Of a stretch of 13,688 bases of DNA, positions 11,661 through 13,688 are shown in pieces. Origin of the DNA: a bacterium (GTDB lineage Bacteria; Sysuimicrobiota; Sysuimicrobiia; Sysuimicrobiales; Humicultoraceae); assembly GCA_041497675.1 (NCBI GenBank), contig JBGQGY010000101.1:1-13688 (forward strand), in the 5' to 3' direction. Numbering within the stretch: position 1 is the stretch's first letter; every line of letters begins with the position of its first letter. The position numbers and the translations under genes are program-made. The notes beneath the pieces were generated by a model that ran no database searches, was not told where the DNA came from, and saw nothing but the letters and a program-made list of their open reading frames with translations.

Positions 11661-13367
11661 ATGCAGCGGTCCAATCGCGCACCGGCCTATCCGCCGCCCT
11701 CTTTCGACAGCGTGGTGCTGGCCGCCGTGATCGCCGAGTGTGCCACCCTGATCGGCGGCCGCGTGCAGCGCGTGGTGCAGACCGGGGCCGCGGATCTGGC
11801 CATCGTGTTGCGCGCCGCCGGTCGTCAGCGCGTGCTGGTCGTCTCGGCGCACACGCAGTGGGCGCGCTGTCATCTTGCCGGCGAAGTGTCCCCGACAACG
11901 GCCACGCCGTTTGCGAACATGGTGCGCGGGCGGCTGGAGCGCGGCGTGCTGCGCGCGATCAGCGCGCCGGTCTTCGAGCGGATCGTGACGCTGGAGTTTG
12001 ACACCCTCGAGGGCTCCGCTCAGCTGATCGCCGAACTCGCCGGCCGGCACGCCAACATCATGATGTGCGAGGACGGTGTCATCGTCGGCGCGCACCGGCA
12101 GGTCCCCAGCCGCGGGATCCTGCCGGGCCGGCCGTACACGCTGCCGGCGCAGACGCGGCCCACGCCTGCTACCATCACGGCGGATCAGCTCGCAGCCGCC
12201 GACGCAGGGCAGACCTGGCGCGCGATCCTCATCGCGGTCGCGGGTATCGGTCCACCGCTCGCCCACGAGGTGTGCGTCCGCGCCGGCTACGATCCGCAGG
12301 CACCGCCTGCCGCCGGCGGAGCAGACGCGCTGGTCGCCGGGCTCCGCGAGATCGCGGTGGCGGTCGCGGAGCGGCGCTTCGCACCCGCGCTGTATTACAG
12401 CGCGGGCGGCGACCCCGTCGCCTACGCCCCGTTCCCGCTCGAGATCTATCGAGGCCTGCGCGAAGCCCCGACGTCGATGAGCGCGGCCGTCGAGGCCGTC
12501 ACGGCCCGCGCAGCGGGTCGCGCCGGCCTCGACCACCTGCGCCAGGGGCTCGCATCGACGGTCACGCAGGCGATCGGGCGGACGCGGCGCGCGCTGGCCG
12601 CCGTCGCGCAGGATCTCACGGCGGCCGGCGAGGCCGACCGGTATCGCCAGCACGGGGAACTGCTGCTCGCCTATCTCACGCAGGTGACGCCCGGCGCCGA
12701 CAGCGTGGAGGTGCCCGGCTTTGGGGGAGAACCGGTGCGCATCGCCCTCGACCCGGTGCGCACCGGTGTGGAAAACGCCCAGGCCTATTTCCGCCGGTAC
12801 GCGCGCGCACAGGCCGCCCTCAAGCGGCTCCCTACTCGCCGGGCCGACCTGGAGGCTGAGGTGGCCTACCTCGACGGTGCCGCCACGGCGATCAACCAGG
12901 CCGAGACCGAGGACGATCTGGCCGAGATCGAACAGGATCTGATCGCGGCACGGCTGCGCCGGCCGCGCCGCGCAACGACCCGGCCGCCGGCGGTGGCGGC
13001 GCACCGTGTGTTCCGCGCGGCCGACGGTAGTCAGATCATCGTCGGTCGCAGCGCACGGGAGAACGACTACGTGACATTCGAAGTGGCCAGGGCCGACGAC
13101 CTGTGGCTGCACGCGCGCGGCGTGCCGGGTGCCCACGTCATCCTCAAGACGGCGGGACCACAAGCCTCCAACGACGTCATCGAGGCGGCCGCGCGCGTAG
13201 CCGCTTATTATAGTGCGGCCCGCGCCTCAGGGAAGGTGCCGGTCGATGTGACGCGACGGCGTTTCGTGCGAAGAATCCGCGGGGGCCGACCCGGGCAGGT
13301 CCACTACACCAACGAACGCACGCGCGTGGTCGTCCCCGAACTGCCGGCGGGACTCGCTACTCCGTGA
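11661..13367 (+). CDS. rqcH: Ribosome quality control protein RqcH (NFACT/FbpA/PavA/YloA family), 568 aa
   Basis: FDSVVL near the N-terminus, FERIV, IAELAGRHANI, HhH-like GIGP, coiled coils with ENAQAYFRRY, NFACT-R VGRSAREND..DLWLHARGVPGAHV, AAYYS; divergent from yloC. The track's upstream extension to 10698 is antisense to yicC. Confidence 0.95.
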   Translation: MQRSNRAPAYPPPSFDSVVLAAVIAECATLIGGRVQRVVQTGAADLAIVLRAAGRQRVLVVSAHTQWARCHLAGEVSPTTATPFANMVRGRLERGVLRAISAPVFERIVTLEFDTLEGSAQLIAELAGRHANIMMCEDGVIVGAHRQVPSRGILPGRPYTLPAQTRPTPATITADQLAAADAGQTWRAILIAVAGIGPPLAHEVCVRAGYDPQAPPAAGGADALVAGLREIAVAVAERRFAPALYYSAGGDPVAYAPFPLEIYRGLREAPTSMSAAVEAVTARAAGRAGLDHLRQGLASTVTQAIGRTRRALAAVAQDLTAAGEADRYRQHGELLLAYLTQVTPGADSVEVPGFGGEPVRIALDPVRTGVENAQAYFRRYARAQAALKRLPTRRADLEAEVAYLDGAATAINQAETEDDLAEIEQDLIAARLRRPRRATTRPPAVAAHRVFRAADGSQIIVGRSARENDYVTFEVARADDLWLHARGVPGAHVILKTAGPQASNDVIEAAARVAAYYSAARASGKVPVDVTRRRFVRRIRGGRPGQVHYTNERTRVVVPELPAGLATP

Positions 13368-13497
13368 TTGGCCGGCGGTCGTCGTCGGTCGCGGGCCGCT
13401 TCTCGTCGCTCTGCTCGGCGGGCAGCGGACGGGACGGACGTTCGGGCGTCCACTTCCCAATCCACAGTCGCATCGGATCGTCGCGGCGGTTGGACAT
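13357..13497 (-). CDS. Unannotated small protein, 46 aa (MSNRRDDPMRLWIGKWTPERPSRPLPAEQSDEKRPATDDDRRPITE)
   Basis: AGGAGGAGG (13514-13506) 8 nt before ATG 13497; TAG at 13359-13357; downstream of a strong promoter; no family recognised. Confidence 0.6.
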   Translation of the reverse strand: MSNRRDDPMRLWIGKWTPERPSRPLPAEQSDEKRPATDDDRRPITE

Positions 13498-13515
13498 CTC
13501 TCTCGCCTCCTCCTG

Positions 13516-13560
13516 AAAAACACGACGACGCCCACACCACCATAAGGTGGGGGCGTCGTG
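13516..13560 (-). terminator. Intrinsic terminator / attenuator hairpin upstream of the small ORF
   Basis: ACGACGCCC-CCACC-(UUAU)-GGUGG-[UGU bulge]-GGGCGUCGU, 14 bp in total, followed by CGUG-UUUUU (13520-13516). Confidence 0.7.
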
Positions 13561-13576
13561 GCCCTGTCGCCTTACC

Positions 13577-13596
13577 TGAACTTTGCGTGAACTTTG
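13577..13596 (-). repeat. Perfect 9-nt direct repeat CAAAGTTCA x2 with an 11-nt period
   Basis: Plus-strand tgaactttg at 13577-13585 and 13588-13596. Confidence 0.8.
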
Positions 13597-13604
13597 TTAC
13601 TGTG

Positions 13605-13632
13605 AGTGTATCGACTGAGCGCGACTTGTCAA
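13605..13632 (-). promoter_or_regulatory. Strong sigma70/SigA-type promoter
   Basis: Exact TTGACA (13632-13627), 16 nt, TACACT (13610-13605); predicted TSS near 13598; AT-rich relative to the window. Confidence 0.75.
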
Positions 13633-13638
13633 GATATC

Positions 13639-13688
13639 CTAGCCCTCCGGGCCCGGTTCCTCAATCACCACTTCATCGCGGCCGTCGA
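13639..13688 (-). CDS. Possible 3' end of an upstream gene (...DGRDEVVIEEPGPEG*)
   Basis: Open frame from the window edge to TAG 13641-13639, ending just before the -35 box; too short to identify, and another frame ending at TGA 13665 is also possible. Confidence 0.3.
   Translation of the reverse strand, partial: DGRDEVVIEEPGPEG

Follow-up and report, generated by a model that had tools for sequence, protein, structure and literature searches.

A putative ANTAR-type antitermination switch ahead of an unannotated microprotein gene in the phylum Sysuimicrobiota

The DNA analysed here, called the window in the following, is the whole of a 13,688-nt contig (JBGQGY010000101.1 of assembly GCA_041497675.1; contig C101 of genome G000) from a bacterium of the Humicultoraceae, and its minus strand carries a promoter, a short leader and a 46-codon open reading frame (ORF). 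We consider it very probable (about 0.85) that this leader acts as an ANTAR-type antitermination switch that depends on a protein: termination is the default and is relieved when a phosphorylated regulator with a receiver (REC) and an ANTAR domain binds the G at the fourth position (G4) of a hairpin loop. To judge from the sequence, the element works like an ANTAR target, but it is not a canonical member of the dual-hairpin class with A1 and G4. In the proposed mechanism, transcripts from the promoter as well as read-through transcripts from the upstream pyrR gene would fold the terminator and stop at its U-tract, directly ahead of the Shine-Dalgarno (SD) sequence. The phosphorylated REC-ANTAR regulator encoded on G000:C12 would bind the six-base loop through G4 and hold a short hairpin, whereupon the terminator could not form and the microprotein would be produced alongside glutamine synthetase, most likely under nitrogen shortage. 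Nitrogen limitation is quite likely to be the signal, given the target genes and the nitrogen theme of ANTAR regulons. Sequence comparison shows both structures, the regulon, the co-occurrence with ANTAR genes and the coding signal of the ORF; binding, control by phosphorylation and the nitrogen signal are what we infer from it.

A conserved hairpin and terminator

The features of the locus, in window coordinates, are:

13605..13632, minus strand: sigma-70-type promoter, TTGACA (-35) at 13632-13627, a 16-nt spacer and TACACT (-10) at 13610-13605; start predicted near 13598
13577..13595, minus strand: two 8-nt direct repeats, 11 nt apart, just past the predicted start; partly kept within the genus
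13566..13575, minus strand: weak candidate for a first hairpin (+1.3 kcal/mol), with a 2-bp stem and an A1/G4 loop, separated by 1 nt from the second hairpin
13551..13564, minus strand: antiterminator (second) hairpin, 4-bp stem, six-base loop CACGAC (C1; G4 at 13557), -6.7 kcal/mol
13516..13559, minus strand: intrinsic terminator, stem-loop 13559-13525 with a 3-nt bulge, U5 at 13520-13516, ending 1 nt before the SD
13506..13514, minus strand: SD sequence AGGAGGAGG; a purine-rich SD also precedes the 15 listed members of the microprotein family
13357..13497, minus strand: 46-aa microprotein gene, ATG at 13497; motif D7-P8-M-x-L11-W12-x-G14-x-W16 and a variable charged tail
13639..13688, minus strand: 3' end of pyrR, the upstream gene (overlap with G000:C220, PF00156 match)
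11661..13367, plus strand: rqcH/NFACT gene, convergent neighbour outside the switch; start approximate

The promoter, the terminator with its U5 and the unannotated ORF had been proposed in the initial annotation and lie exactly where it placed them; moreover, the -35/-10 pair recurs at the matching place in the homologous loci of relatives, the terminator covaries, and the ORF belongs to a real conserved family. Taken alone, the promoter match is no more than chance level (one promoter-like site in the 13.7-kb window, as compared to 0.7 +/- 0.9 in shuffled sequence), and the leader fold (-36 kcal/mol, z -1.87, 8/200 shuffles equally stable) is modest. The loop and 3' strand of the short hairpin are at the same time the 5' arm of the terminator, and with at least 3 bp, a six-base loop and this overlap the hairpin has the form expected of the second hairpin of a canonical ANTAR target.

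Two checks that the initial annotation had suggested, an Rfam search and a covariation analysis on relatives, were carried out. Rfam gave no match near the gathering score, neither in the window nor in six further loci. A DNA search of 61 genomes placed the leader or the beginning of the ORF between pyrR and rqcH in five relatives and, unexpectedly, ahead of a response regulator gene in two others; what they share is the core GGGC-CRCGRC-GCCC followed by a terminator. Among 94 genomes of the order (the whole phylum in the collection used), this core pattern was found in 25, with a single match in the reversed control, mostly before glnA and furthermore before amtB, REC-ANTAR genes and the small ORF. 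A covariance model (R1) built from 27 copies returned 102 rows in 60 of the 94 genomes. The 62 rows that had not been seen earlier and were not partial (positions 25/28 onward) were read by eye, and their downstream genes are glnA (24), amtB (16), REC-ANTAR (9), the small ORF (8) and a GNAT acetyltransferase (2); the remaining three are a contig end, an unclear case and a probably false match. A relaxed scan of G000 gave five places, namely the microprotein locus twice (C101, C220), glnA (C193) and two places without promoter or SD context, judged to be chance matches. In the genome of the window, the unit is thus found only at glnA and the microprotein ORF.

The terminator is strongly covarying: in 66 aligned matches, 92.6% of 829 cells are paired and 10 of 13 pairs show changes on both sides, with none of 500 shuffles reaching this level and slid controls at 40-60%, in an alignment that was fitted to the tested structure and includes two reverse-strand partial rows. 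The GGGC/GCCC hairpin is conserved throughout (254/254 cells paired), with a both-side change at one of its four pairs; the other three hardly vary and hence say little by themselves. For loop statistics, 19 of 113 units with an unclassified downstream gene were dropped. The script did not fix the loop letters, while most loci had first been found by a pattern or model holding the loop. In the resulting 94 units the outer stem pair is G-C in 65, A-U in 20, G-U in five and unpaired in four. G4, which corresponds to G13557 in the window, is present in 92 of them, and the two exceptions are mis-registered matches. Across the aligned units no conservation was found upstream of the hairpin.

These results bear directly on the alternative pairings that the initial annotation had listed. 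GGGC/GCCC, UAAGG/CCUUA and GGCGAC/GUCGUC all exist in the window, but only the first is conserved. UAAGG/CCUUA, which together with the hairpin reaches -9.9 kcal/mol in the window, is broken by a substitution in the 99%-identical G000:C220 copy and has no partner in G001, and the GGCGAC/GUCGUC helix, possible in the window, is likewise not conserved. Its view that such a short helix needs a ligand or protein for stabilisation is judged right, as is its central proposal of a conditional read-through switch ahead of a real microprotein gene. The comparison next to rqcH that it had proposed concerns a link local to one family.

Several variations of the unit were seen along the way. Two hairpin-terminator cassettes stand in series before amtB, REC-ANTAR genes or glnA (L076, L077, L078, L089, L092, L095, L096, L098, L100, L107, L112, L116, L120); in a set of 112 units, from which five false or reverse matches and the non-G4 rows had been dropped and to which eight leaders had been added, 13 are the second of two such cassettes (15 matches, two of them false). 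In genus g19, strong single-hairpin units lie 7 nt past a -10 (L037, L038, L071). The -10 and the hairpin are 6-7 nt apart in minimal leaders such as L102, L113 and L041. At L090 and L106 the switch precedes the GNAT acetyltransferase gene, whose product presumably resembles phosphinothricin/methionine-sulfoximine acetyltransferases.

ANTAR proteins, known systems and competing explanations

The ANTAR domain (PF03861) is present in 81 of the 94 genomes and missing from genus g4 (0/8), genus g28 (0/4) and G029. Model R1 matches 60 of the 81 ANTAR-positive and none of the 13 ANTAR-negative genomes (Fisher P 3e-7), two of the 60 (G077, G083) resting on weak matches judged false or unverified. Moreover, an ANTAR gene is found no more than 2 kb away from 25 matches, spread over 21 genomes (33 matches on the ANTAR-bearing contigs examined, of 102 rows). 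Where ANTAR is absent in g28, the orthologous glnA retains its terminator while the six-base loop is gone in 4/4 genomes. Among nine glnA genes of ANTAR-positive genomes that the model had missed, the loop is present in seven; one has a five-base loop and one lies inside an operon. In genus g4 the only glnA is divergent and in most cases follows another gene directly, and a search of G029 yielded no orthologous glnA. At the g28 loci (L210-L213 in G062-G065), ~60-130 nt before glnA, all four carry, in place of the loop, a longer segment that is conserved, has two alternative helices and gave no Rfam match, possibly a replacement switch.

Genome G000 encodes a single ANTAR protein (G000:C12), composed of REC and ANTAR domains and located directly behind a GAF-GAF-HisKA_2 kinase gene. 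Its best solved relatives are 1s8n (putative antiterminator, E 1.7e-55), which we take to be Rv1626/PdtaR, and EutV 6wsh (6e-42). The arrangement, with the kinase directly before the regulator, is like that of EutW/EutV or PdtaS/PdtaR, the latter presumably the names of Rv3220c/Rv1626. Aligned to 6wsh (numbering offset by 2), the regulator keeps Arg142, Lys149 and Glu160, while Tyr164 is replaced by Phe. In family f4 and genus g25, the shortest leaders with a single hairpin (L035, L036, L081, L086, L102, L113, L114, L117, L118) precede the gene of a REC protein whose ANTAR domain is degenerate and has lost its RNA-binding residues; this protein is a candidate for a feedback decoy or a phosphate sink.

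ANTAR control of nitrogen genes is already known, and the closest parallel is GnfK/GnfR of Geobacter sulfurreducens, likewise a kinase with a REC-ANTAR regulator, where a GGC-hexaloop-GCC element overlaps the terminators of nitrogen genes including amtB; the GnfR site CAGGCAANGGCGCC, described before the nifH/glnK/amtB terminators, closely resembles the leader core (PMC2995071). The Geobacter elements have A at loop position 1 and RpoN promoters (PMC2995071), in contrast to C1 and sigma-70-type promoters here, and the main target in this phylum is glnA, joined by a microprotein gene. With EutW/EutV of Enterococcus faecalis the unit shares a second hairpin that overlaps the terminator 5' arm, G4 and a C:G closing pair (PMC3369931, PMC8934654), and the regulator shares Arg142, Lys149, Glu160 and an aromatic residue at 164 (PMC8934654). 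The mycobacterial pair Rv3220c/Rv1626, which includes the closest solved relative, resembles the present one as a kinase-activated REC-ANTAR system, but its targets mostly overlap the ribosome-binding site (RBS) and repress translation, and the Met is kept there (PMC12591593, PMC8164766).

Several points weigh against an ANTAR protein acting on this leader. Published targets carry a pair of A1/G4 hairpins joined by a 5-12-nt linker, and EutV depends on all of these features: it required both hairpins and lost induction with A1 mutants (PMC3369931); a selection with NasR again arrived at dual hairpins with A1/G4 and a C:G closing pair (PMC7496416). Here, the loop begins with C in the window and in 89 of the 94 units, and with A in only one. 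The first hairpin of the window, with a 2-bp stem (shared by G001 and G002) and a 1-nt linker, falls below the canon of 3 bp and 5-12 nt, and first hairpins of at least 3 bp occur in 26 of the 112 units as compared to 23.3 +/- 3.9 in shuffled sequence, which is no enrichment. On the protein side, Met172 is essential in EutV, where an Ala mutant abolished binding (PMC8934654), and the corresponding residue of the G000 regulator is Arg. Moreover, the amtB of the window's genome carries no unit in the relaxed scan, and the Fisher P overstates the co-occurrence because the ANTAR-less genomes represent at most three independent losses, of which only g28 keeps an orthologous glnA.

Set beside these points, the EutV-RNA structure has G4 as the sole base-specific contact and A1 uncontacted, and EutV bound single hairpins equally well (PMC8934654). 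In sum, relative to EutV the loop changes from A1 to C and the protein from Met172 to Arg, and the first hairpin is weak, adjacent (0-2 nt, as compared to 5-12 nt) or absent. A strong first hairpin precedes 10 of 40 glnA leaders (nine adjacent, one at 15 nt), the linker range of actinobacterial first hairpins being 2-25 nt; a position-wise test for an A..G first loop gave no single peak. For short leaders, an upstream promoter could supply a first hairpin. In the alignment from the phylum (44 rows, of which eight are the degenerate paralog), every one of the 36 canonical ANTAR proteins has Arg172. Outside the phylum, three Anaerolineae/Chloroflexota genomes chosen by their C1 pattern have Arg172, and a fourth gave no ANTAR match; the best 30 of 85 ANTAR matches in a Chloroflexota sample carry Met (28) or Gln (2), a score ranking that may favour Met. 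Shared descent or transfer could lie behind this pairing of Arg172 and C1. A clear hairpin-over-terminator unit, with either type of loop, was seen in the glnA leaders of neither the nine Met-type (10 genomes searched) nor the two Arg-type Chloroflexota genomes. The C1-type units of Anaerolineae/Chloroflexota (L131, L148, L150, L151, L157, L232, L233) precede amtB, an amino-acid permease and a transporter that we take to be ArsB/NhaD-like, or lie just after the ANTAR gene.

The same departures from the canon could also be read as signs that a metabolite-binding riboswitch (e. g., for glutamine) or another RNA-binding protein controls the terminator, with the ANTAR genes as mere members or neighbours of the regulon. 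The departures at A1 and Met172, the lack of a stable first hairpin at most loci and the absence of an Rfam match would fit this explanation, which we nevertheless regard as improbable: the upstream sequence is not conserved and a conserved aptamer domain (Rfam 15 classes) was not found; in 15 of 65 promoter-called units at most 17 nt, and in 11 at most 12 nt, separate the -10 from the hairpin (start sites predicted), a distance too short to hold an aptamer; loss of ANTAR goes together with loss of the loop; and the core resembles the GnfR site. The initial annotation's suggestion of a new cis-regulatory RNA, with the layout of riboswitches and protein-dependent attenuators, is not supported as far as a new class or a riboswitch is meant; the unit has the layout of an ANTAR antitermination target (six-base loop with G4, C:G closing pair, 3' strand shared with a terminator, nitrogen genes downstream) and tracks ANTAR genes.

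The pyrR gene upstream invites two further explanations. The terminator might mainly end the pyrR operon and be relaxed or leaky, so that the microprotein is made at a low constant level; the window scan found no terminator between pyrR and the promoter or ORF, and the window's first hairpin is weak. Yet the loop and the 5' strand of the hairpin, for which a plain terminator has no need, are kept at 26 of 27 ORF loci in at least three neighbourhoods, and where relatives lack the ORF cassette, pyrR and rqcH are immediate neighbours (G006), which makes this explanation slightly less credible still than a riboswitch. The leader might also be a relic of a PyrR attenuator after loss of a pyr operon between pyrR and rqcH, genes that occur in the order pyrR...rqcH in Bacillus. 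This was rejected as next to negligible in probability, on the grounds that no Rfam PyrR match appears at E up to 5, that the unit also precedes glnA and amtB, and that in family f2 the cassette stands away from pyrR.

The ANTAR reading thus places the basic mechanism among those already known, and the departures lie in the RNA loop and in the likely binding protein. Two hairpins are thought necessary for ANTAR antitermination, and the sufficiency of a single hexaloop is left open in the structural report (PMC8934654), so that these units offer natural test cases for whether one hexaloop is enough and whether the identity of residue 172 determines which base is preferred at loop position 1. 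Search models that presuppose A1/G4 dual hairpins would probably miss such RNAs. A bolder proposal, which we put forward as speculative and rather unlikely in its entirety, is that an ANTAR variant operates in the phylum and in some Anaerolineae, with an Arg in place of the Met plug that reads C1/G4 loops, and that this variant can antiterminate from a single hairpin during transcription. Its regulon would include an undescribed protein of 40-77 aa that uses its Trp motif to bind and tune glutamine synthetase, or to feed back on the kinase/regulator pair, in a phylum without detected GlnE. In the literature consulted, nothing was found on the ANTAR system of this phylum, on C1 loops or on the microprotein, with supplementary hit tables (PMC3369931, PMC8164766) as places that could hold C1 examples; the words ANTAR, glutamine and regulation do not occur in the main text of the phylum paper (PMC11604079).

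The microprotein family

A profile of 15 members matched in 27 of the 94 genomes, of which 26 are genuine (the G077 match is weak and lies in a long frame) and none is ANTAR-less. The family comprises 27 loci in these 26 genomes and shares the motif D-P-M/L-x-L-W-x-G-x-W. A hairpin-terminator leader precedes 26 of the 27 loci (one terminator partly masked), the remaining one being cut by a contig end, and among the 13 loci found without the RNA model 12 have the leader, the thirteenth being again the one at a contig end. The neighbours are pyrR/rqcH in family f1 and differ in f2, G003 and G038, which indicates that promoter, switch and ORF move together; in f2 they are mostly what we take, from translations, to be an enolase-family gene and a large UPF0182-like gene.

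The small ORF is very probably truly coding, as its substitution pattern suggests. D, P, L, W, G and W are invariant in 39/39 aligned sequences, the invariant D, P, L and G are encoded by 2, 3, 4 and 4 synonymous codons, respectively, and departures from the consensus number 35, 22 and 75 at the three codon positions. A search of 1.84 billion representatives returned 26 proteins, all of 40-77 aa, while Pfam (0), NCBIfam (0/39) and the ESM Atlas (no usable match) gave no family.

Small proteins are familiar members of nitrogen regulons, for example, cyanobacterial IF7/IF17 and Methanosarcina sP26 and sP36. By analogy only, the microprotein is likewise short, mostly disordered and co-regulated with glutamine synthetase, here in a lineage without detected GlnE (0/94 genomes; 3/14 controls positive); it differs in that the ORF has no sequence family match. 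Its gene is probably an undescribed member of the nitrogen response. Since glutamine synthetase is the only other target found in the genome and GlnE was found in none of the 94, control of this enzyme by a small protein is a concrete, testable idea, and modulation of glutamine synthetase is accordingly our first, tentative guess for its function. Feedback modulation of the kinase/regulator pair is a more doubtful second guess. Families f4 and f5 have no ORF and instead carry extra REC-ANTAR genes under the same switch, a contrast that would fit a feedback role on the two-component pair but is confounded with kinship. The gene for glutamine synthetase was found in 10/10 ORF-bearing genomes tested and not in G038 (72% complete); together with the GlnE and Amt counts, this would fit a role of the microprotein beside the enzyme. 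An obligate partnership with AmtB or PII was considered and rejected: Amt, found in 49 of the 94 genomes, was not found in nine of the 26 ORF-bearing ones (G001, G061, G052, G049, G068, G069, G072, G073, G038; 72-93% complete), and no PII was found in G000. If confirmed, the locus would add a nitrogen-control circuit, and an unannotated microprotein tied to it, to what is known of a mostly uncultured phylum.

Surroundings of the locus

Contig C220 overlaps the end of the window at 99% identity and identifies the upstream gene as pyrR; its gene order reads dksA-like, lspA, lgt-like, rluD, pyrR (names read from translations). The locus is thereby present twice in the assembly (G000:C220:3582-3887 and window 13383-13688, three differences, both at contig ends), which probably reflects an overlap in the assembly or variation between strains. 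At their 3' ends (13357-13367) the convergent small ORF and rqcH share 11 nt, and since no terminator was found between them, read-through transcripts would run antisense into rqcH. Contigs of a relative from two sequencing runs of one study, whose RNA nature is a guess, cover 13220-13587 and 13402-13571, one ending at 13587 in adapter; they cannot show starts or ends and were not used as evidence.

The direct repeats at 13577-13595 could be a site for a DNA-binding regulator; the pattern AAGTTC-N5-AAGTTC occurs in the G000 genome only at the two copies of the locus. A reading as a LexA- or PhoP-like direct repeat seems less likely, given that the genome contains 86 instances of GTTC-N7-GTTC and that other members of the genus retain the repeat only in part. 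A further leader with a terminator directly before an SD was noticed at G000:C213:3041 on the plus strand, ahead of a dapB-looking gene, and is possibly a lysine riboswitch.

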